The notes under the pieces are model-generated. The model was not told the origin of the DNA. It was given only the letters and a program-made list of their open reading frames with translations, and did not search any database. This document shows positions 2,443 to 16,836 of a stretch of 64,000 nucleotides of DNA, one piece after another. Positions within the stretch are counted from its first letter, which is position 1, and each line of letters opens with the position of its first letter. A program made the position numbers and the translations under genes. The DNA lies in NCBI GenBank assembly GCA_050246755.1, contig JBFWVL010000001.1:1568001-1632000 (forward strand), in the 5' to 3' direction. The stretch comes from Bacteriovoracia bacterium. Its GTDB lineage: Bacteria; Bdellovibrionota; UBA1018; CAIPTA01.

Positions 2443-3756
2443 ATGGTACGAATTATAGGGATGGATAAATGGAAAGCCTCCGGCAAAACTTCCGTACTCG
2501 CCGTTTTTTTCTTTTTGCTCTGTTATTTCGTTCATTTCGGGGCAATCTGGAAATACGCCGTGAATATTCCCTCCATGGATGAATGGGAGGCGCTGAATGA
2601 CAACGCCTTGATTGCACCCTCCTTTCGCTGGTTCTTTGCCAAGCACAACGAGCACATGATCGCTCCAACTAAATTGCTGGCTTGGCTGCTCCTTCACCTG
2701 AACGGCTGGAATATCCGAAGCTCTATTCTGCTGAGCTTTGGAATTTTTGGGCTATTGGTGGCCTCGGTGGTAGTGGTGGGCCGGAGACTGATGTTTGCCC
2801 TTCCGCTTTGGGCCGTGCTTGCCTTTTGCCTATTTTTACTTTCCACGCTGCCGAGCGAAAATCATATGTGGGGGTTTCAGTCTCAGTTCCATTTCTTTCT
2901 TCTATTTAAAGTGATCGCCATTTTATTTTTGTTCGATTCGCGTCAGGGCTGGCCCGCGGTTTTCCTCGGCACGCTGGCGCTGGCCGCTTCGATCGTTTCA
3001 TTTTCGGCGGGCGTGGCTTCCGCCGCTGCGCTACTGGCGATTTTCGTACTTTTCAAGTGGCATCGTTTTTCGAAAATCAGAGGATGGGATAAGCGGGAGC
3101 TTCAGCAGCTGGTTTTTACCGTGACGATTACCGCGGTGGTTATGTTGTTTTGGTGGAGCGTGCCAGGCCCATCAGTTCCTTTCAGTTACCCCACGGGGAT
3201 GATTTTTTGGCGCATGCTGTTTCGGATGGTCGGATGGGGATACGGTCTTTTCGCGGTCTCCCCATTTCCAGTATTTCTGGGTTTTTTATTCGCTGGCGCG
3301 CTGCCGCTGTTGCTGATCTGGCGGCGAAGCGAGATTGGTCTCACGGAGAAAGCCATGATCACGGCCTGTATTGGCTCCACCCTGGCCGAGCTGTCGGCTA
3401 TCTCCTTGGGGCGCGGATATTTCGGCCAGCTATTCGTGATCTACCGCTATACCGAGGTCGCCTTCCTCCTTGTGCCCTGGAGCGCTTTCGCCTGGGCCAT
3501 GGCGCTGGAGAAAGAAAAAATCGCGCGTTCATTCGTGCTTGCAGGTTTGTGGATTTTTTTCGCGGTTAACTTTTCCGCTTATCTAGGAACCGAGGCCTAC
3601 GAAGGGATCCGAAATTGGCGCCGGCACGGAGTCGATTGCCTTGAGTCCGCGAACCGGCGCGGTGGAGAAATTCGCTGCGAAGCCCTCTACCCAGGCCCGC
3701 TCAATCATCGCCTAGAAAATGCCCGTGTGTTGAATATCTCTTTTACGCGCCGCTGA
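2443..3756 (+). CDS. Polytopic membrane protein, GT-C-fold glycosyltransferase-like
   Basis: About 10 TM segments; acidic P.MDEW motif after TM1; HNEH motif. Confidence 0.55.
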   Translation: MVRIIGMDKWKASGKTSVLAVFFFLLCYFVHFGAIWKYAVNIPSMDEWEALNDNALIAPSFRWFFAKHNEHMIAPTKLLAWLLLHLNGWNIRSSILLSFGIFGLLVASVVVVGRRLMFALPLWAVLAFCLFLLSTLPSENHMWGFQSQFHFFLLFKVIAILFLFDSRQGWPAVFLGTLALAASIVSFSAGVASAAALLAIFVLFKWHRFSKIRGWDKRELQQLVFTVTITAVVMLFWWSVPGPSVPFSYPTGMIFWRMLFRMVGWGYGLFAVSPFPVFLGFLFAGALPLLLIWRRSEIGLTEKAMITACIGSTLAELSAISLGRGYFGQLFVIYRYTEVAFLLVPWSAFAWAMALEKEKIARSFVLAGLWIFFAVNFSAYLGTEAYEGIRNWRRHGVDCLESANRRGGEIRCEALYPGPLNHRLENARVLNISFTRR

Positions 3757-4477
3757 GTTTCAACAGGCGCAGCACGTGGATTTCGCCGCCGCGCACCTGC
3801 CACTCCACGTCGAAAATAGAAACGCGAAATCTAAAAATCGCGCCTTCGGTTTTCGCTCCCTTCAGCGGCATGGTTTTTCTTTGGGAAATCGGCCGCGGGT
3901 CGAGCGAAAGAGTTTCGGCGAGAAATTCGCGAAATCGCGGCATGAGAAGTTGGCTCTGCTCCGCGATCGTTCGCAGGCTTTCCGCGGAAAAATGTACCGG
4001 AAAGCGTTGGATTTCTTCCGAGGCCCAACCAGCAATGGCTTCGGGTATGGAATCGGCATAAGGAATATACGGTTTGATATCCAGCACGGGCGTTCCATCG
4101 AGCAAATCCACGCCGCTAAGGTGAACTTCGATTCCTCCTTCGGCAGATAGATCGATTCGATCCAGTTTCACCGCCGAGATCCCAATGGGATTGGGCCGGT
4201 GCGGGGCGCGCGAAGCAAATACGCCTACTTTGTCTATTTCCAATCGCGGAGGGCTAATTTTGGGCCGCCAAGCCTGACCAAGGTGCTGGTGAAAAACAAA
4301 AACAAGCCATACATGGCTGAAACCTTCGAGCTGGTTCAGGGCATCCGGATACAGAGGATCGGGGTTCAGTTTTAGGATTCCCTTGGCCTCGGAAACCAGC
4401 AGGGACTGCCGGGGCGTGCCGAATTTTTCTTTAAAGCAGGTGCTCACGAACCCAATGGGGGGATAAACGTCTTTCAT
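3743..4477 (-). CDS. trmO: tRNA (N6-threonylcarbamoyladenosine(37)-N6)-methyltransferase
   Basis: KFGTPRQS, GVFASRAPHRPNPIG and DLLDGTPVLDIKPY motifs. Confidence 0.93.
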   Translation of the reverse strand: MKDVYPPIGFVSTCFKEKFGTPRQSLLVSEAKGILKLNPDPLYPDALNQLEGFSHVWLVFVFHQHLGQAWRPKISPPRLEIDKVGVFASRAPHRPNPIGISAVKLDRIDLSAEGGIEVHLSGVDLLDGTPVLDIKPYIPYADSIPEAIAGWASEEIQRFPVHFSAESLRTIAEQSQLLMPRFREFLAETLSLDPRPISQRKTMPLKGAKTEGAIFRFRVSIFDVEWQVRGGEIHVLRLLKLSGA

Positions 4478-7925: not shown

Positions 7926-9332
7926 ATGCTGAAAAATTTACTTTTATTGTTGTGCTTATTGGGGGGTTCTCAAAATTCGCGGGCCGATTCTTTGCCCGAT
8001 GAAGATGTACTTGCCCAGCTCAACTCTCTGCCGGGAGTGGAAGCCACCGAGAAAACCACTCGCGACGACGCCGCCAAAAATGTGCGCCGTTTTTCCGCCA
8101 CGATCGAACAGCCCGTGGATCACTTCAATCCGAAATCGGCCAAGTTTCGCCAGAAGCTGGTGATCTTTCACCGTGGTTATAAAGAGCCAATGGTTCTTCA
8201 GACCAGCGGTTATATTATTTTTGGCGAACGGCTTTCCCGCTTGGCCTCGGTATTTGGCACGAATCAAATTCAGGTGGAGCACCGCTACTTCGGAGAATCT
8301 ACTCCGGTGCCCACCGACTGGAGCAAGCTCACGGTGCGCCAGAGCGCCGAGGATTTTCATCACATCGCGGAAACGTTTAAATCCACCTATTCCGCTCGTT
8401 GGGTAAATACCGGCGCGAGTAAGGGCGGAATGACTTCGGTTTTCCATCGGCGCTTCTATCCCAATGATTTGGCCGGCACCGTGGCCGACGTGGCGCCGTT
8501 TTCCTACGCACTCGACGACGACAGGTACGTGGCTTTCGTGGACGCCGTGGGGGGCGCTACATACGCGGACTGTCGAGAGCGGCTCTATGATTTGCAGCAG
8601 GCGCTTCTTCGGAGAAGTGAAGAAATTCTTCCCGAGATCGAGGGGAGTTACGAAAAACTGGGAGACAAGCTGATCGCCTACGAATCCGCGGTGGTAGAAA
8701 TGCCCTTCGTGTTCTGGCAATACGGCGATCCCACGAATGCGCAGTGGGGTTGCGGGGCGCTGCCTGCTGCGTCTGCTTCGGCGCATACTCTCGCGAATTT
8801 CTTGAAGGTGGCCAATAATCCTAATAGTTCCGCCGACGCCGGCCTTGAAATTTTTCAGCCCTACTTTTTTCAGGCCGCAGCGGAGCTCGGCGGGCCGGGC
8901 GCGAAGCTCTCCCACCTGCGGGGACTGCTGAAGTATCCCTACGTGCTGGATCCATTTTTACCTAAGGGCGTGAGGACTCCTTACTCCAACGGTGTGCTTC
9001 TCGATATGCGTGGCTGGGCCGCGGAATCGGCGAATAAGTTACTTTTTATTTATGGGGAATTCGATCCCTGGACGGCCGGCTCTTTCCCTCGCCTGCAGAC
9101 CGGCGAAAAAGCGGATAACCATCAGTTCGTGGTGCCGAGGGGAAATCACAGTGCCAATTTTATGATGCTGCCGGGCACCCAGCGGTCCGAAGCTATCGCT
9201 ACGCTTAGCCGTTGGCTAAATAAGGCACCGGTGGCGAGCGAAACATCGCTGCAGGCGTTCGGGCCCACCGCCGTTGACGATTCCCTCGAAGCACTCGAGC
9301 TTCGTGCCTTGCGTTCCTACCGGCCTCGCTAG
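7926..9332 (+). CDS. Secreted tripeptidyl aminopeptidase (peptidase S28/S37 family)
   Basis: Signal peptide; QPVDHFNP, EHRYFGES, nucleophile elbow GASKGG, YGEFDPW and GNH motifs. Confidence 0.88.
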   Translation: MLKNLLLLLCLLGGSQNSRADSLPDEDVLAQLNSLPGVEATEKTTRDDAAKNVRRFSATIEQPVDHFNPKSAKFRQKLVIFHRGYKEPMVLQTSGYIIFGERLSRLASVFGTNQIQVEHRYFGESTPVPTDWSKLTVRQSAEDFHHIAETFKSTYSARWVNTGASKGGMTSVFHRRFYPNDLAGTVADVAPFSYALDDDRYVAFVDAVGGATYADCRERLYDLQQALLRRSEEILPEIEGSYEKLGDKLIAYESAVVEMPFVFWQYGDPTNAQWGCGALPAASASAHTLANFLKVANNPNSSADAGLEIFQPYFFQAAAELGGPGAKLSHLRGLLKYPYVLDPFLPKGVRTPYSNGVLLDMRGWAAESANKLLFIYGEFDPWTAGSFPRLQTGEKADNHQFVVPRGNHSANFMMLPGTQRSEAIATLSRWLNKAPVASETSLQAFGPTAVDDSLEALELRALRSYRPR

Positions 9333-9438: not shown

Positions 9439-10677
9439 ATGCTTGGTGAAATGCCATTTTTTCTCTTCAAGAATAGATCCAAAATAGTAGCCGTATCGAG
9501 CCTATTTTTCCTCTTATCGCTCAGCCTGCTTGCGGGTTGCGCGAAGGACAAAAACGACGAGCCGCCCACGCCGAAGGTGACGGAGCGGTCTTCCGTGCTC
9601 GCGGGTTCTCTCACCGAAAACGTGACTGCGATTCATAAAGAAGCGGCTTACCAGGATCCCTGCGAAGAACAGTTTCGGGACGCGCAGCTCGAAATAGCCA
9701 AAGTTTTGGATGCAAAGGCTTCCGAGATCACCGCGTTCACCAAAAAAAAATCGGAGAATACCGCCGCTTCGTACCGCCGGGTACGGCTTGGGTCCATCCA
9801 AGTTCGGGAACTCGTAAACCCGGTTTCTCCCAAGCCGGGCTGGCAGAGCTATCGTACTACTTGGAAGACGATACTCGAAGATTACCATGCCATTAAGGGT
9901 ACGCCCGTGAACGACTATTGGGTTCAGCTAAATGCCGATGTCCGAGGCATTTTGTTGGACGACGTGGATCGCGTGGTTCATTCGTATAATATTTACTTGG
10001 ACAAAGACTCCGGCCCAAAGATCGAGCGCATGGTGGCGGCGATTCAAAAGTGCGTTGATGTCCCGGGATGCGCGTCGATAGAGTGGCCGCCTGATGTTTC
10101 GGATTTTGTGATCCAGCAGCCGTATTACGGCTCGTATCATCGCGGCATTGAGAGAAAAGAAAGCTTGGTCGAAAAGCGCAAGATGATGCAAAGATTTTTG
10201 TCCTACGCACTCGGCGATCTAAAAAGTTACCGATTCGAGCCCACTCCAAAAATGCAAAGAGTGAGCACGGGTCGCTATTACCTCCAGGTAGACCCAGGGC
10301 CCCTGGAGGAAGTTTCCGATCAGCTCCGCGGATATATCGAGAGCGTATGGCGCTCTTCCCAAGAGCAGGTTTCCATCAAGTGGAAAGACGCGCGCAGCGC
10401 TTCGGATATCTACCGCATCGTTATCGGCGCCACCGTGGGCGACCGTGCCTTCGTAACGAGGAAAAATAAAACGATCACGCTATTTTCCGACGTGCGCGCG
10501 AAGTCCATCGCCCACGAGTTTGGCCACGTGATGGGATTCAACGATCGATATTTCACCATTTGGCACCCTGAGAGCTGCGAATATGTGGTTCAGTACAGCG
10601 CCGAAGATATCATGTCGGATCCTTCCACCGGCGTGGTGCTCCAGGAACACTGGGACGACCTGGCCCGTTACTACTGA
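9439..10677 (+). CDS. Lipoprotein with C-terminal zinc metalloprotease (metzincin-like) domain
   Basis: Lipobox LLAGC; HEFGHVMGFND zinc motif followed by a Met-turn (DIMS). Confidence 0.75.
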   Translation: MLGEMPFFLFKNRSKIVAVSSLFFLLSLSLLAGCAKDKNDEPPTPKVTERSSVLAGSLTENVTAIHKEAAYQDPCEEQFRDAQLEIAKVLDAKASEITAFTKKKSENTAASYRRVRLGSIQVRELVNPVSPKPGWQSYRTTWKTILEDYHAIKGTPVNDYWVQLNADVRGILLDDVDRVVHSYNIYLDKDSGPKIERMVAAIQKCVDVPGCASIEWPPDVSDFVIQQPYYGSYHRGIERKESLVEKRKMMQRFLSYALGDLKSYRFEPTPKMQRVSTGRYYLQVDPGPLEEVSDQLRGYIESVWRSSQEQVSIKWKDARSASDIYRIVIGATVGDRAFVTRKNKTITLFSDVRAKSIAHEFGHVMGFNDRYFTIWHPESCEYVVQYSAEDIMSDPSTGVVLQEHWDDLARYY

Positions 10678-10746: not shown

Positions 10747-12321
10747 CTAGTCGATGTAGGGGCGGGCTTGTTTCAGGAAGACCGTGGGAACGCCATTGTC
10801 TTCCGAGTCCACTTTGAACTCCAGGTCGAGGGCGAAGTCCGCTTTGTCCGCGCCGAAGATCGGCTTGAAGTGAGCGTGGGCCTTCATCACTTGGTAGGCG
10901 AGGTCTTTGGCCTGTTCTACCGAGAGAATTTCCTTCGGATTGTCGTGATCGAGGATGGTCTCGTTGTCGTCGGCAATATTGGATTTCTGCAAGTAGCGCA
11001 CTTCGTACTGGGCTACGTTGAGGGGGTCGCGGTCGTTGAAGAGGATCAAAACCTTCTCGGGCTTGATTCCTGATTCAGGGTTCATCACGCTGAATTTATC
11101 GCCGCGCTGGGCTTCTACGTATACGCCCGGAGCGGTGAGATTAGGATCTTTCGAAACGTTTTTCGTCACCACTACGCCGCTGGCACCTTCATCGCTGAAG
11201 GAGGGATTCACTTGGATGCCCATTTTCACATCGCCATGAGGGATACGGAAGAAGGCTCTCTCTTCGTAGGCACGCAGGTTCCAAACCGAGGCCCATACTT
11301 TGCGCAGGGTTTCACTGAGGGCGGCCACTTTTTTCTCCCGCTTCTTCTCTTTGCCGTCTTTCGCAGGCTTATAAGAGTAAGAGTCGTAGAGGCCAGCGCC
11401 GTTGAAGTTCGGCAGGTCTTCCGAGTTGGTAGAGGAGCGCAGCTTCAGCTTACGGGGAACTCCGTCCTTCGTCACTTTCTTGTCGAAGAGCTCGATCAGG
11501 CGGTCGATCAAGGCCGGGCTGATCACGGCGGTTTCGGCCATCATCAGGTCTTGCAGGGCCTTGAGCTTCTCTTCACGGTAGCTCACCTTGGAAACGCGCT
11601 TCATGAGGGGATCGCGGAGGATTCCTTCGATAGAGGCTTTGATTTTTGGGTTACTGTCGATGAACTCTTGGTAGAAGTAGAAGGGGATACCGAAGCCCGT
11701 GCGCACCACGGTGCGATCCGCGGTATTAAGGGCTTTAGCGAGCTCGCCGCAGTTGGCGGCTTTCGATCCTACTTTGTCGGCATCGGCAGAGGAAAGATCT
11801 TCGGTGCGAATCACGTCGCGGGCACTCATGTCGGCCTTTAGCTTAACGTCTACGCCTTTTTTAGCTTGGTAGAACGCGGTGGCTTCGGCTTCGGTGGATT
11901 TCTCGAGAAGGATCTGCCCGTCTTTCGAAAGCACCATGCGAACCCAGTCTCCGTCTTTGAAGGGCTTCATCAGCGAGCTGCTGAGGCCGCCGTCGAGCTC
12001 GGAAATATCGAGGTTCGGGGTTCCGCGCGCGCGGGATTTCAGCTGAACGTGCGAGAGCAGGTTCTGCTGCTTGAGGGTGATCGATCCCGTTACCACGGCG
12101 AGATCCATGGGGAGCTCGGCGAAAACGGGCAAGGAGAGAGGGCTCAGGGCTTTGAACTTAGGAGACAGCTTCTGAACGTCGTCCACGGAAAGGTAAACGA
12201 GCTGTCCTTTCGCTTCACCCGGGTTCATCACGCGGGCGGCCGCGAAGGTTATATTGGGGATCAGGTTCAATAGGAGTGTAAGGGTAATCACTCTACGTAC
12301 GTTGCTTCCGATATTTTTCAT
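10747..12321 (-). CDS. Exported PEP/pyruvate-binding-domain dikinase-like protein (His-swivel plus ATP-grasp)
   Basis: Signal-like N-terminus; LLSHVQLKSRARGTP phospho-His motif; VGSKAAN, RSSTNSEDLPNFNGAGLYDS, VWASVWNLRAY and KQARP motifs. Confidence 0.8.
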   Translation of the reverse strand: MKNIGSNVRRVITLTLLLNLIPNITFAAARVMNPGEAKGQLVYLSVDDVQKLSPKFKALSPLSLPVFAELPMDLAVVTGSITLKQQNLLSHVQLKSRARGTPNLDISELDGGLSSSLMKPFKDGDWVRMVLSKDGQILLEKSTEAEATAFYQAKKGVDVKLKADMSARDVIRTEDLSSADADKVGSKAANCGELAKALNTADRTVVRTGFGIPFYFYQEFIDSNPKIKASIEGILRDPLMKRVSKVSYREEKLKALQDLMMAETAVISPALIDRLIELFDKKVTKDGVPRKLKLRSSTNSEDLPNFNGAGLYDSYSYKPAKDGKEKKREKKVAALSETLRKVWASVWNLRAYEERAFFRIPHGDVKMGIQVNPSFSDEGASGVVVTKNVSKDPNLTAPGVYVEAQRGDKFSVMNPESGIKPEKVLILFNDRDPLNVAQYEVRYLQKSNIADDNETILDHDNPKEILSVEQAKDLAYQVMKAHAHFKPIFGADKADFALDLEFKVDSEDNGVPTVFLKQARPYID

Positions 12322-12322
12322 A

Positions 12323-13705
12323 TTATTTCTTTCTCAGTTTTTCGATAACGTTGGAGGCGGTATTAAGCGCCGAACTTTTGATGGTGCTGTCCATGAAGTA
12401 AGACATCTTGGGTTCGATCGAAACCCATTGGTCGTACGTTGGGCGGAATGCTTCCGTGAGAGTAGCCGTGGAGGCATCCACGATATCTCCGAGAAGAGAG
12501 GCGGCGTCACCGGCGGTAGTGGCTTCCTTCTGGAAGTAAACCCAGTTGTCCTTGATCAAGAAACCTTCCACATAGATCGTGTTCACAACCGTTTCGGTGA
12601 TCTTGTTGCTAAGGGTCTTCACGGTGGCGGAAGAGATTCCGCTGATTTCTTTGTTCAATACTTTGGTGGTTTCCGCGAGCAACGCGAGGGTTAGTCCGCG
12701 TTTCTCGTAGGGAACCCGGGCGGTAGCGATATCAGAGCGCAGGTTGGCGGCAGCACGCGAGAGCTCGAGGAGTCCGTCGGTGAAGGTCGCCTTTTTGGCC
12801 ACTTTATCGGCCGCCGCTTTGATCTCGGGGTAGCCGAGTTTCTTGGCGGTATTACTGATTTTCCCTACGCTGATCCCAAAGTATTCCACGAGGATTCTGC
12901 GAAGCTCCGGGAAGTAGGAATCATTGCGGTAGCTGGGATAGCTTTTCAGGAACTGATCGAGCTGGCCGACCACTTCTTTGCTCAGCTGGTTATGGATATT
13001 ATTGCGGAGCTTATACATCTCCTGCAGCCCGCTTTGGTCCACGCCCCAGCCGCCGGCGTTATAGTAGTCGAAGGCCTGGGCGATCAGATCGCGAGCGCGT
13101 TCGAGCGAGGCCGAGGCTACGATCGGGCTTTTATTCACGAGGATGAAAGCCGGAAGATACTGGAAATCTTCCGTGATGGAGCTGAGGTAGAAATTGAAGA
13201 AATACTGAGCGAAGGTTTGTTCGTTCACCACGTCGCTGATCCCACGGTAGGCGAAGGCCATTCCCATCTGGGATTGCGGAAATTGGTTCAGGTACTGCTT
13301 TTCCAGCACCCATCCGCGCACCATGGCCGCCGCTTTCGGCATCGCCTTGGCACCCACGTCGGCCAGGCGCTTATGCTCGAGAGGGTGATTGCTCATCGGA
13401 TCTCCGAACACGTATTCACCCATGAGCTCGTAGTAGTTCGTGGTGAAGAGATTGCCCAAGTAGAACGTGTCTTGAGCGATCATGTCGCGGGCGATTTTGT
13501 TGCGGTAAGCGGCCTGGAACAAGGCGCCGCCGTCCACGTGGGTGCCATTTTTTACGGCCACACGCGAGCGGGCACCCTGGATATAGTTCAGCTCAAAGGG
13601 ACCTTTATTGGTCGAATTGATCTGGGCCCAGTTCTGTTTCAGGTTCGCCGCATGCGCCGTTAAGGCATAGGTGGCGAGAAAGAGCGTAATAAAGAAGTTT
13701 CTCAT
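12323..13705 (-). CDS. Exported hypothetical alpha-helical protein
   Basis: Signal peptide ending AHA; 460 aa; 1 nt from the downstream gene; host-like codon usage. Confidence 0.75.
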   Translation of the reverse strand: MRNFFITLFLATYALTAHAANLKQNWAQINSTNKGPFELNYIQGARSRVAVKNGTHVDGGALFQAAYRNKIARDMIAQDTFYLGNLFTTNYYELMGEYVFGDPMSNHPLEHKRLADVGAKAMPKAAAMVRGWVLEKQYLNQFPQSQMGMAFAYRGISDVVNEQTFAQYFFNFYLSSITEDFQYLPAFILVNKSPIVASASLERARDLIAQAFDYYNAGGWGVDQSGLQEMYKLRNNIHNQLSKEVVGQLDQFLKSYPSYRNDSYFPELRRILVEYFGISVGKISNTAKKLGYPEIKAAADKVAKKATFTDGLLELSRAAANLRSDIATARVPYEKRGLTLALLAETTKVLNKEISGISSATVKTLSNKITETVVNTIYVEGFLIKDNWVYFQKEATTAGDAASLLGDIVDASTATLTEAFRPTYDQWVSIEPKMSYFMDSTIKSSALNTASNVIEKLRKK

Positions 13706-13716
13706 GATTCAAATCC

Positions 13717-15546
13717 TCAGCGGGCTTGGTTAATGATCTGATTGGCTTCGCGGTCGAAAGCGTTTTCTCCGCAGGCTTCTTTATCTGAGAATGGTGCGCA
13801 GCCGCGGATACGTCCCATGAGGCGAACGATACGTTTGCTGAGCGCCGAGTTGCTGATCTCTTCGAGGCCCGAGGTGTCGCTGGGAAGATAGAGCTGGATC
13901 TTGTCGCGCTCATATTCCTGTTCGTAGAGCGGAAGCACGCCGTTCACTACCATGCGCGTCTTCATTCCACGCTTCTGGAAATCCAGGTACGAAGGAACCG
14001 AAACGCCAGGGTTGTTGAAAAGGTAAGTTCCGTCTTCCGTTACGGTGAATACGTTCTTCGCGCCGTAGAGAGTGGTGTAGAACTTCAGTTTTCCGCGTTC
14101 GGCGATGTCGAGATCTTTTCCCTCACGATTTGCGAGGCCGCTGGCGGCCTGCGTTCCGTAGGAGATAGAGTATTTCACGCCCATTACTTCGGGTTTGCCG
14201 TCGCCGTCGATGTCGTATACGTCGAAATCCTTAGGGTCTTGCATGAAGGTATATACTTGGGTGGCAACGCTGTTCTGCGAGGGCAGAATGGAGCGCATTT
14301 CCCAGGCGTGGCCCGAAGCGAGCCGCGAGCAACCGTGGGAAACTCCGCCGCGCATTACGGCCCAGAGAGTCTGGTGATTGGCAGGAATGTTCAATGCCGC
14401 GCGCACGGCTTTCGAAGTCCAGTTGCGCACGCCTGGATTGTGGAAGCCGTTTCCGATGCCTTCGTAGTCCATCTTGGGGATCCAAGCGTAGTAAGGCTCT
14501 TGGCGGATATTGTCGAAATCGGCGTAAGAGCGCGAGAGGAATTTCCAGAGACCGGTGGTGCCGAAGCTCGAAATCGAGTTTCCGAATTGATCGCGAGTTT
14601 TTTCCACTACGGTGCCGGTGGGATATATCGTGGTGAATTCAGTATAGGCAAGCAGGCAGCTGGCCGCGCTGGTGCACTGGATGAGATTTTCCCAGCGTCC
14701 GTTCACAAACTGACGCGTCTGGTATTTGTTGCCAGTGAGGGTCTTGAAGAGGTCGAGGGCGTTGAGTACGAACTCGTCCTCGTTGCCGTCAAGCTTCGCC
14801 ATTTCGGCTAGAGTTACGAGTTTGGCCATCACTTCGGGCGTAGGCTTGGCGATATAGTTCACGCGTCCCCATACGAGGCTATCGATCGCGATCACGGTCT
14901 GGCCGGGATTTTTCGCGAAGAAGGCCGTGGTATCGGCCTGATTGGCGAGCATGGCGCGGATCTGAGATTTCCATTTGCGGAATTCATTCGTGAGGTTTAG
15001 GCGGATAGTATAGATGCGGCCGGGGTTCAGCGCGGTGATGGTGGCCAAGCCCTTGGCGTAGATTTCTTCACGAGACGTTGCGCCTGAGTTCGCACGCTCT
15101 ACGAAGGGGAGGATGCCATAGGCATCGGACTCGATGATTTTGTTAAAATTGGAGAGCTGGGGTAGGAAGGCGGCGCTTTTTGAGTCGATCGCGGTGTTCA
15201 CGATCGTGGTGGCGCCCACGCGGCTCGTTACGTTCTTGTAAAACTTATAGCGTTTCACGAGATCGAAGAGGTAATCGCTCGCGGTTTGCTCATCAAGAAT
15301 CACGCTGATGCGGGTATTGTTTCCGCGCGCGAGGCGGATATGAATCCGGGAAGGGGTGCTCACGCGAGGAGCGAAGCCGGTATAGAAACTGGGATAGTAA
15401 CCGCCAATGGCGTTGTTACCGGCGGTCCAGGTGGTTCCCCACACTGGCAAAGAGGCGTTAAGATCGTCAATGGTGAAGGCGGCCTGAGCGTTGCTTAGCC
15501 AGCCAGCGGAGAGCGCGAGAGCGCCTACGAGCGATACGAATTTCAT
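13717..15546 (-). CDS. Exported protein with L,D-transpeptidase (YkuD)-like catalytic motif
   Basis: True start ATG 15546 after a GAGGT RBS; signal peptide ending AQA; GFHN...VSHGCSRL motif; DIDGDG Ca-binding loop. Confidence 0.65.
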   Translation of the reverse strand: MKFVSLVGALALSAGWLSNAQAAFTIDDLNASLPVWGTTWTAGNNAIGGYYPSFYTGFAPRVSTPSRIHIRLARGNNTRISVILDEQTASDYLFDLVKRYKFYKNVTSRVGATTIVNTAIDSKSAAFLPQLSNFNKIIESDAYGILPFVERANSGATSREEIYAKGLATITALNPGRIYTIRLNLTNEFRKWKSQIRAMLANQADTTAFFAKNPGQTVIAIDSLVWGRVNYIAKPTPEVMAKLVTLAEMAKLDGNEDEFVLNALDLFKTLTGNKYQTRQFVNGRWENLIQCTSAASCLLAYTEFTTIYPTGTVVEKTRDQFGNSISSFGTTGLWKFLSRSYADFDNIRQEPYYAWIPKMDYEGIGNGFHNPGVRNWTSKAVRAALNIPANHQTLWAVMRGGVSHGCSRLASGHAWEMRSILPSQNSVATQVYTFMQDPKDFDVYDIDGDGKPEVMGVKYSISYGTQAASGLANREGKDLDIAERGKLKFYTTLYGAKNVFTVTEDGTYLFNNPGVSVPSYLDFQKRGMKTRMVVNGVLPLYEQEYERDKIQLYLPSDTSGLEEISNSALSKRIVRLMGRIRGCAPFSDKEACGENAFDREANQIINQAR

Positions 15547-15891
15547 ATTTTTTACCTCAGTTGAAAGCGAAAAAAATCTCAGTTGGCCGGAACCTACCCG
15601 ACAACAACGCGCCAAGTCAATATGCTTTAACGCTGAGCGCAAATTATTTTCCACCGAGAAAAAGAGGCCTGCGCAAAGAGTGACCAAGTAACGCAGCAAG
15701 GTGAGGATGTAAGAGAAACGCGTGCATTGTAGGCTGGATTCCGCTTTCCGGGTACCGTTGCAAGCAAATGAAAGAAAAAAGCTTATAAAAACTACACACT
15801 TAGCTTGGTCAATGGGGCGCGGCACATTATCCTAAATAGACCACGCCATTGGTAATTCTATTCGTTTCAACGGTTCATGGAGGAGCTGTAA

Positions 15892-16836
15892 ATGAATGTA
15901 TCTCTCGTGTTTCTGTCCTTATTAGTCTTCGCTTCATGCGGCCAAACGACACCTGGACAAGCGCAGGTACCTGTCACTCCCGTGACCGATCCGAACTTCC
16001 TGGTGCTGGCCAACGGGACAGATTTGAGAACAATCAAAGTATCCGGCGCGGCTCTCTCCTTGGCGCGCGGAACGGGGAACAGTTTTGGGGCAAGCCAGCA
16101 GGCGCAGTATATGGCGCTGAAATCTCGTTCGAAGGCTGGGGATCCTAAGATTCAGTGGGTGCTCATGGACCTCGATAGCCACGTGATCGTGGACCAAAGT
16201 GCCAATACGGAAAAACGAATGTTTGGGGCTTCAGCCTCAAAAATTTTCGTGGCCGGAACTCTGTTGGATAAGCAGAGGGGGGAGCTTAGCTCCAAGCAAC
16301 TGCAGCTGATGTCGGACATGCTGGTGATTTCTTCCAATACAGCCTGGGTGGAATTGCAAAGCCAGATAGGCGACGGCAACTCAGACCGCGGCCGCGAGCT
16401 GAACTACCAGTTTACCCAACGGATGGGGTACAAAAATACCCGCGGTTTTCAGGGGAACTGGGGCTCTATGCATGGCAATGAGCTGTCCTCAGCCGACGTA
16501 GCCGAATTCCTCTACGATACCTACCAGGGCAATTATCCTGGGGCAGATACGATGTGGAAAATTATGCATACCTCGCGGACGGGAGCCGAGCGGGCAAAAA
16601 AATATATGCCGGCGGATCTGGTGCTGGGCGGAAAAACTGGAACCTATGCCGGAAGCACCGTGGATCCCGATACCGGGAGAGGGATCAAGGTAGACGTGGC
16701 CCACCAAGAGATCGTGTTTAATATGGGCGGGCGTCAATACGCGCTGGTGGTGCTTGCCGATACGGGCACGAACGAAACCGCCGCTTTATTGGCCGGTGGC
16801 TTATTGCGCGAATACACCACGTATCGCGGGAAATAA
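15892..16836 (+). CDS. Serine hydrolase lipoprotein, class A beta-lactamase/PBP-like fold
   Basis: Lipobox FASC; SxxK (SASK), SxN (SSN) and KTG motifs; GGAGG RBS. Confidence 0.82.
   Translation: MNVSLVFLSLLVFASCGQTTPGQAQVPVTPVTDPNFLVLANGTDLRTIKVSGAALSLARGTGNSFGASQQAQYMALKSRSKAGDPKIQWVLMDLDSHVIVDQSANTEKRMFGASASKIFVAGTLLDKQRGELSSKQLQLMSDMLVISSNTAWVELQSQIGDGNSDRGRELNYQFTQRMGYKNTRGFQGNWGSMHGNELSSADVAEFLYDTYQGNYPGADTMWKIMHTSRTGAERAKKYMPADLVLGGKTGTYAGSTVDPDTGRGIKVDVAHQEIVFNMGGRQYALVVLADTGTNETAALLAGGLLREYTTYRGK

Follow-up and report, generated by a model that had tools for sequence, protein, structure and literature searches.

What would an apparently intact histidine-relay dikinase do outside the cytoplasm? 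This question is raised by a four-gene locus (genes A to D) of a Bacteriovoracia bacterium (Bdellovibrionota), located in a stretch of 64,000 nucleotides (nt) of contig JBFWVL010000001.1 (assembly GCA_050246755.1; positions 1,568,001 to 1,632,000 of the forward strand), hereinafter the window. To our knowledge, the histidine-relay dikinases characterized so far, which function in central metabolism, starch turnover, phenol catabolism and rifampin resistance, all act in a compartment that holds ATP. Here, in contrast, a dikinase comes with Sec-type signals, a new helical partner domain of its own and two companions that resemble cell wall enzymes. Export of such an enzyme is surprising, given that ATP is thought to be missing outside the cytoplasm. 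With moderate confidence, we interpret genes A to D as an exported module the core of which is a swivelling-histidine dikinase built like the plant glucan, water dikinase (GWD) and cut into two polypeptides. The features of the locus, in window coordinates and with protein lengths in amino acids (aa), are the following.

10747-12321, minus strand: gene C, 524 aa, with a putative histidine domain and then a PPDK_N ATP-grasp.
12241-12321, minus strand: residues 1-27 of C, a signal-peptide-like N-terminus (assigned by our own heuristic and low model confidence).
11827-12240, minus strand: residues 28-165 of C, a putative domain of the phosphohistidine (swivel) type.
12049-12051, minus strand: codon of His91 of C, in the motif QNLLSHVQLKS, where a short helix begins in the model.
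10747-11826, minus strand: residues 166-524 of C and the stop codon, a PPDK_N-type ATP-grasp nucleotide-binding domain.
12323-13705, minus strand: gene B, a predicted exported 460-aa protein, all-helical in the model apart from a small N-terminal sheet.
13717-15546, minus strand: gene A, 609 aa, predicted to be exported, with a Cys/His motif similar to that of YkuD.
15547-15891, no strand: the 345-nt intergenic region between the divergent genes A and D.
15892-16836, plus strand: gene D, 314 aa, a lipoprotein-type serine enzyme of the beta-lactamase/penicillin-binding protein (PBP) fold with the motifs SxxK, SxN and KTG.

The layout described in an earlier reading of the sequence alone (hereinafter the sequence-only reading) is recovered from the coordinates of the open reading frames (ORFs): A, B and C are close-packed on the minus strand with gaps of 11 nt and 1 nt, and D, with its three motifs and a lipobox, is divergent from A. 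The longest ORF of A spans 13717-15825; the start is most likely the Met of MKFVSL at 15546, which yields 609 aa, because 17 homologues of A align from this Met, each with its own signal peptide.

Protein C contains a PPDK_N domain at residues 182-521 (Pfam; E 7.6e-22, 78.5 bits against a cut-off of 27), and the motifs RSSTNSEDLPNFNGAGLYDS and VWASVWNLRAY are confirmed in it. No Pfam match to PEP-utilizers_C or to the phosphoenolpyruvate (PEP)-pyruvate TIM barrel was detected in C, the chain of which ends at residue 524 with the ATP-grasp. In the AlphaFold2 (AF2) model of C (predicted local distance difference test score, pLDDT, 82.8; predicted template modelling score, pTM, 0.80), superposition of the ATP-grasp (residues 166-524) gave values of 26.8 with rifampin phosphotransferase (RPH; 5hv1), 26.0 with PEP synthase (2ols), 23.4 with HpeI (9goj) and 17.8 with pyruvate, phosphate dikinase (PPDK; 1dik). 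The arrangement proposed in the sequence-only reading, that is, a histidine domain, then a PPDK-type ATP-grasp and no pyruvate barrel, is thus supported by Pfam, the AF2 model and superposition taken together.

The histidine that the same reading singled out is also conserved. Ser90 and His91 are invariant in 16 of the 16 aligned close relatives of C, and the equivalent of His91 is invariant in 19 of the 19 sequences of a cross-phylum set that covers at least eight phyla. Likewise invariant in the 16-sequence alignment are the Lys of VGSK, the Arg of LRSS, the acidic pair of SEDLP, D499, E501, Q518 and R520, which we take to be the Mg-ATP ligands of PPDK-type domains. The databases contain more than 868 proteins of 428-559 aa that resemble C, the named ones mostly from metagenome-assembled genomes (MAGs) of Bdellovibrionota and Oligoflexia.

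Several weak but concordant lines suggest that residues 28-165 of C are a phosphohistidine domain. In the AF2 model, this segment forms a small sheet-and-helix domain in which His91 opens a helix (residues 88-99) that is followed by a strand; a study of GWD1 (PMC13553574) describes the same placement, with the histidine at the start of a helix and then a strand, for the histidine domains of GWD, RPH and PPDK. Matches below the Pfam threshold to GWD1_pHisD or PEP-utilizers fall on the histidine segment in 4 of the 13 isolated domains and in 4 of the 30 full-length relatives, and GWD1_pHisD is the model most often matched by relatives of C, always below the threshold.

Some database records name relatives of C 'pyruvate, water dikinase', and C could in principle be an ordinary cytoplasmic PEP synthase-like enzyme misread as exported. 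This explanation appears extremely improbable and is contradicted by the domain content. With PEP synthase and PPDK, C has in common the PPDK_N nucleotide domain and, as predicted, the phosphohistidine relay; it differs from them in the lack of the TIM barrel, in the position of the histidine domain before the ATP-grasp and in the export-type N-terminus. The NCBIfam model of PEP synthase gives 73.6 bits against a cut-off of 598, with the matches confined to the first ~330 model positions, and hydrophobic N-termini are conserved in the C family. Moreover, C is not the metabolic enzyme because the host genome (3.55 Mb, 10 contigs) carries a separate, canonical PPDK of 908 aa.

The second part of the proposed dikinase is protein B. 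It belongs to no Pfam family. An AF2 model of high confidence (pLDDT 89, pTM 0.85) is almost entirely helical and, judging from this model, B is an all-helical domain of a new fold. The invariant polar residues in the alignment of B are K34, R68, N85, N90, E135, R234, N235, H238 and N239. The link between B and C comes from natural fusions. The two proteins are fused in one ORF in three MAGs labelled as Chromatiales (1027, 1036 and 1014 aa); these fusions have a single N-terminal signal, that of B, and a linker in place of the signal peptide of C. Fusions of B and C (965, 991 and 979 aa) also occur in a different Bdellovibrionota family, in three of its genomes, and each of them is preceded by a homologue of A. 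More broadly, the full N-terminal B domain is present in 24 of the 69 longer database homologues of C. A search of 1.84 billion representatives with the B profile retrieved only 89 B-like proteins, and among the 20 of these that exceed 520 aa, 16 carry C downstream. The exported 'PEP-binding' proteins of ~1000 aa that were mentioned in the sequence-only reading therefore exist, and their N-terminal half is B. The same reading had B as the detached substrate-binding subunit. The fusions support the assignment of B as a detached third domain of the dikinase; binding of the acceptor is the part of that proposal that we infer. The case for the role of B is carried by the fusions alone, because B bears no detectable likeness to solved acceptor domains.

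A few candidates from these searches were set aside. The 944-aa protein P0121 has a junction without the signal peptide of C and could come from a frameshifted contig, such that it was not taken as proof of fusion, and an 'open frame' of 976 aa in genome G007 proved to be two ORFs with a stop between them. The best PDB sequence match of B, a chain with an LXG domain (E 0.0012), covers a helical stretch and was taken as meaningless. The ESM Atlas yielded no usable match for B, the model stored there being poor. Separately, a group of remote B-like proteins (P0246-P0262; 404-661 aa) has signal-like N-termini and a KGPY/KGPF...CVC motif, with no C module in the chain.

The fused form of B and C has the same order of domains, all-helical, histidine and ATP-binding, as GWD1 and phosphoglucan, water dikinase (PWD) of plants and algae. 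According to the GWD1 study (PMC13553574), the central domain of GWD1 is an all-helical domain of 20 helices with a unique fold that directly precedes the histidine and ATP domains, and the catalytic histidine is located on a short helix, as predicted for C. According to the same study, GWD1 resembles C also in that its ATP domain is nearer to RPH than to PPDK (for C, by the superposition above), and the central domain of GWD1 and B are alike in being helical and in having no PDB equivalent, a likeness by position and description (PMC13553574). The GWD1 central-domain entries 9HA9 and 9QVI are not among the fold or sequence matches of B, both perhaps being outside the PDB set that was searched. 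The module also differs from the plant enzymes in several respects. No carbohydrate-binding module is found in A, B or C (Pfam, E≤0.1), whereas GWD and PWD carry CBM45 or CBM20; the module is of the exported type and is split over two genes, whereas GWD is plastidial; and its partners resemble wall enzymes rather than starch enzymes.

Split dikinases are known in the cytoplasm, and PMC12167813 places the cut in PpsAB, CreHI and HpeHI, which act on phenols, between the ATP-grasp (I/B) and a protein that combines the swivel with the substrate part (H/A). The module is cut elsewhere, between the substrate-type domain (B) and a chain that contains both the swivel and the ATP-grasp (C). In RPH (5hv1, 5hv3), the order is ATP-grasp, rifampin-binding domain and swivel, unlike the module, and B is unlike the rifampin-binding domain.

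Taken together, these comparisons outline how the module might work. Protein C would combine the ATP-grasp, as the place where the nucleotide binds, with the phosphohistidine domain. If C works like PEP synthase, RPH, PpsAB/HpeHI and GWD (the mechanism being established for PpsAB, HpeHI and RPH, PMC12167813, and for GWD1, PMC13553574), His91 would attack the beta-phosphate of the nucleotide bound at the ATP-grasp; the phosphorylated His91 would then pivot to a second site, where an acceptor would receive the phosphate. Protein B would supply this second, acceptor site, standing where the all-helical central domain stands in GWD. The probable acceptor is a polymer located outside the cytoplasm, or a piece of such a polymer.

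The localization of the module outside the cytoplasm is predicted. Signal peptides were called with a crude rule of our own (a hydrophobic core and a small-x-small site), not with SignalP. All four proteins carry export-type N-termini, and this rule is passed by full-length homologues of A (21/21), B (23/24), C (21/22) and D (22/23), so that the signal-peptide-like N-termini noticed on A, B and C are conserved across homologues; the lipobox of D is FASC. Export has independent support because distant units that combine the histidine and ATP domains (His-ATP units; 25-35% identity) are embedded in plainly extracellular proteins. The domains alongside these units include a sorting tail of the type IX secretion system (T9SS), RTX repeats, dockerin, lamin-tail (LTD), FG-GAP/VCBS, CARDB, SprB, Calx-beta, fn3, sulfatase and polysaccharide deacetylase, and the hosts belong to Planctomycetota, Verrucomicrobiota, Dehalococcoidia, Acidimicrobiia, Myxococcota, Bacteroidota and Acidobacteriota. 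Hidden Markov models of A and B had no match at E≤1 among 4152 ORF pieces of 52 distant loci.

Among the distant loci, three giant ORFs from MAGs of Dehalococcoidia and Acidimicrobiia (L044:3993-14468, 3491 aa; L045:7017-13175, 2052 aa; L048:6951-12452, 1833 aa) combine the His-ATP unit with fn3, polysaccharide deacetylase, sulfatase, cadherin-like and Calx-beta domains and resemble a glycan-modifying surface protein. Within Bdellovibrionota, there are second, more distant C-like genes with different N-terminal parts, one of 801 aa (G183:C16; L106:1540-3942, minus strand) and one of 1061 aa (G169:C54; L107:473-3655, minus strand). Because the frames in L106 and L107 differ N-terminally, the phylum holds several architectures of the exported unit.

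Given that the host phylum is largely predatory and all four proteins have export signals, A to D might be effectors that are delivered to the ATP-containing interior of prey cells or competitors and phosphorylate a target there. The distribution of the module is patchy, with a C-like gene in 10 of the 201 sampled genomes of the phylum (E≤1e-20), which would fit such a role. The module is, however, also present in the MAGs labelled as Chromatiales; in phyla that are not predatory, the His-ATP unit is part of secreted or surface proteins along with anchoring domains (dockerin, LTD and the T9SS tail); and no injection-system gene is linked to the module loci. With these observations on the other side, delivery into foreign cells appears quite unlikely.

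The nature of the acceptor can be approached through the genes that accompany the dikinase. Alignment with C yielded 80 loci, the closest 28 of which (41-65% identity) come from Bdellovibrionota and the three Chromatiales-labelled MAGs. Gene B is present in 25 of these 28 loci, and the three misses are contigs that start inside C. Gene A is present in 23, with 4 of the 5 misses due to contigs that are too short on the A side, and D is also found in 23, on either side and in either strand. The order A-B-C recurs in other genomes, which speaks for more than a chance arrangement, and any neighbour other than A, B and D is shared by 6 of 32 loci at most. The linkage of the dikinase with a YkuD-motif protein and a serine enzyme, which had been noticed in a single genome, is therefore conserved. 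Since the constant companions are the YkuD-motif protein A and the PBP-type serine enzyme D, the best guess for the acceptor is a cell wall (peptidoglycan-related) polymer.

Protein A has the motif HNPxVR ... RGGVS[H/S]GCxR[L/M]..GHxWExR, with an invariant Cys406, along with a DxDGDG segment that resembles a calcium loop and conserved pairs of cysteines. His369, His391, Gly405, Cys406 and Arg408 are invariant in 18 of the 18 homologues of A, which is the pattern of the YkuD active site; with the L,D-transpeptidases of this family, A thus has in common H...S-H-G-C-x-R, whereas most of its 609 aa is unlike any family. The family as a whole is matched far less well: YkuD matches in Pfam stay below the threshold in 5 of the 18 members (best E 0.0035), and an hhalign comparison with 13 canonical YkuD domains, taken from the genome of this bacterium and from its relatives, aligned only 13 columns (E 0.0015, probability 17). 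In the ESM Atlas, most of the rows for A are YkuD clusters, but the model behind them is poor, and a search of PDB with the A profile retrieved nothing real. Accordingly, of the earlier description of A as L,D-transpeptidase-like, the active-site motif stands, and A is a candidate member of the family.

Protein D matches Beta-lactamase2 (Pfam; E 3.5e-10, 40 bits against a cut-off of 22), and all 19 of the 19 homologues keep its S114xxK117, S147xN149 and K248-T-G unchanged. These motifs and the Pfam match are common to D and the class A beta-lactamases and PBP-like enzymes, whereas D remains far below the NCBIfam cut-offs (25.5 bits against 200 for class A beta-lactamase). With the motifs kept and this score so low, D is a penicillin-binding-type serine enzyme that does not qualify as a class A beta-lactamase proper.

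The combination of these proteins could also be viewed as a periplasmic defence against antibiotics, in which an RPH-like B-C would inactivate a drug, D would be a beta-lactamase and A an L,D-transpeptidase that bypasses PBPs. We give little credence to this possibility. The class A score of D is too low; the NCBIfam rph model reaches only 27.5 bits on C against a cut-off of 999, through the ATP-grasp only; the order of domains is unlike that of RPH; B matches neither the rifampin-binding domain nor any other solved fold; and the distant His-ATP units are fused to glycan- or surface-related domains rather than to resistance genes.

Several observations weigh against the interpretation of A to D as an exported, GWD-like dikinase module. 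The model of C is of low confidence at residues 71-91, that is, precisely around His91. The histidine domain of the C protein in the window has no Pfam match even at E 10; a profile-profile alignment by hhalign places the histidine on that of the canonical PPDK swivel domains over 93 columns without significance (E 0.074, probability <1); and the profile of the histidine-domain family has no PDB match at E≤10. For B, no convincing PDB match by fold or sequence was obtained, nor any likeness to a solved acceptor domain. The A protein in the window matches neither YkuD nor any other Pfam family, such that A is YkuD-like in motif and a putative member of the family, and D scores far below the class A cut-off. 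The linkage also has exceptions: the locus L013 (10.5 kb, with 4.7 kb upstream and 2.8 kb downstream) encodes B-C without A or D and is a true exception, and in the second Bdellovibrionota family, the three loci with fused B-C have A and no D nearby. Finally, neither the periplasm nor the cell exterior is expected to contain ATP, and no TLC-type ATP/ADP translocase was found in the genome of this bacterium, although this negative says little because the search control matched in no genome.

The source of the phosphate poses a problem. The sequence-only reading had resolved the paradox with ATP from prey or lysed cells; the idea of prey-derived ATP is weakened because the same His-ATP unit is present in extracellular proteins of non-predatory phyla, including Dehalococcoidia, Acidimicrobiia, Planctomycetota and Bacteroidota. 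A different clue comes from the neighbourhood. Directly after the module, 5-6 of the 32 loci encode a DUF4956 membrane protein, an HlyD-like adaptor, a 407-aa protein of unknown family, a VTC domain of the polyphosphate-polymerase type and an ABC ATPase. In the genome of this bacterium, VTC and DUF4956 matches are located ~3.3 kb apart on another contig (G000:C5:101726-106138), and VTC is present in 4 of the 4 genomes with the close split form against 32 of the 201 genomes of the phylum sample, which are related and not independent. This adjacency, suggestive and weak, hints at exported polyphosphate as the donor. The VTC/DUF4956 set itself (L019:10542-15255; also in L007, L018, L021 and L029) looks like an envelope-spanning exporter built around the VTC domain.

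Under a further explanation, the His-ATP unit would work without free ATP, either with an exported donor such as polyphosphate made available by the VTC/DUF4956/HlyD-like/ABC cluster or in the reverse, nucleotide-forming direction. The gene set after the module and the co-occurrence of VTC with the close split form agree with this view. On the other side, the adjacency is limited to a minority of loci, no VTC match is present in the three fused-form genomes G019, G074 and G183, no paper linking VTC and DUF4956 was found, and the residues of the nucleotide site are conserved as in the ATP-using dikinases. On balance, this alternative appears unlikely. Extended beyond this locus, the GWD-like reading would imply that bacteria of many phyla export a dikinase of this kind that phosphorylates an extracytoplasmic polymer (here the cell wall, together with YkuD-like and PBP-like enzymes) and that the donor is deliberately supplied outside, as exported ATP or as polyphosphate via VTC/DUF4956; in this full form, the proposal is possible but doubtful.

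The catalytic core of the module is of a known kind, whereas its location, the partner domain B and the companions A and D are new. No paper on exported dikinases of the PPDK_N type was found in a search of article texts other than supplements; in the accessible part of a preprint on giant genes of Omnitrophota, PPDK_N is only listed among the abbreviations of a legend. If the GWD-like module is active, then either ATP or another phosphoryl donor is present outside the cytoplasm, or the chemistry is one not yet described and, either way, some phosphorylated component of the envelope or matrix should exist. If the full form of the proposal holds, this would amount to a covalent modification of the wall and a route of energy supply that are absent from textbooks. 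The split and fused forms of the pair provide a clean experimental handle, with B and C separable and His91 as the obvious control.

Several features around the module deserve mention. A scan of the locus for promoters and terminators found nothing exceeding chance; in the A/D intergenic region, one sigma-70-like site was detected (minus strand, 15855-15826) against 2.5 expected, which is the chance level. Just downstream of C, on the opposite strand, the window encodes an exported hydrolase-like protein of the Peptidase_S37 family (7926-9332, plus strand; E 1.5e-63) and a predicted exported lipoprotein of 412 aa with the HExxH-type motif AHEFGH (9439-10677, plus strand); the adjacency of these two genes to the module is not kept in other genomes. 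A gene for a TrmO-type tRNA methyltransferase (3743-4477, minus strand) is located ~6 kb from the module and is also found ~1-2 kb from it in L026 and L028, which is probably a coincidence.

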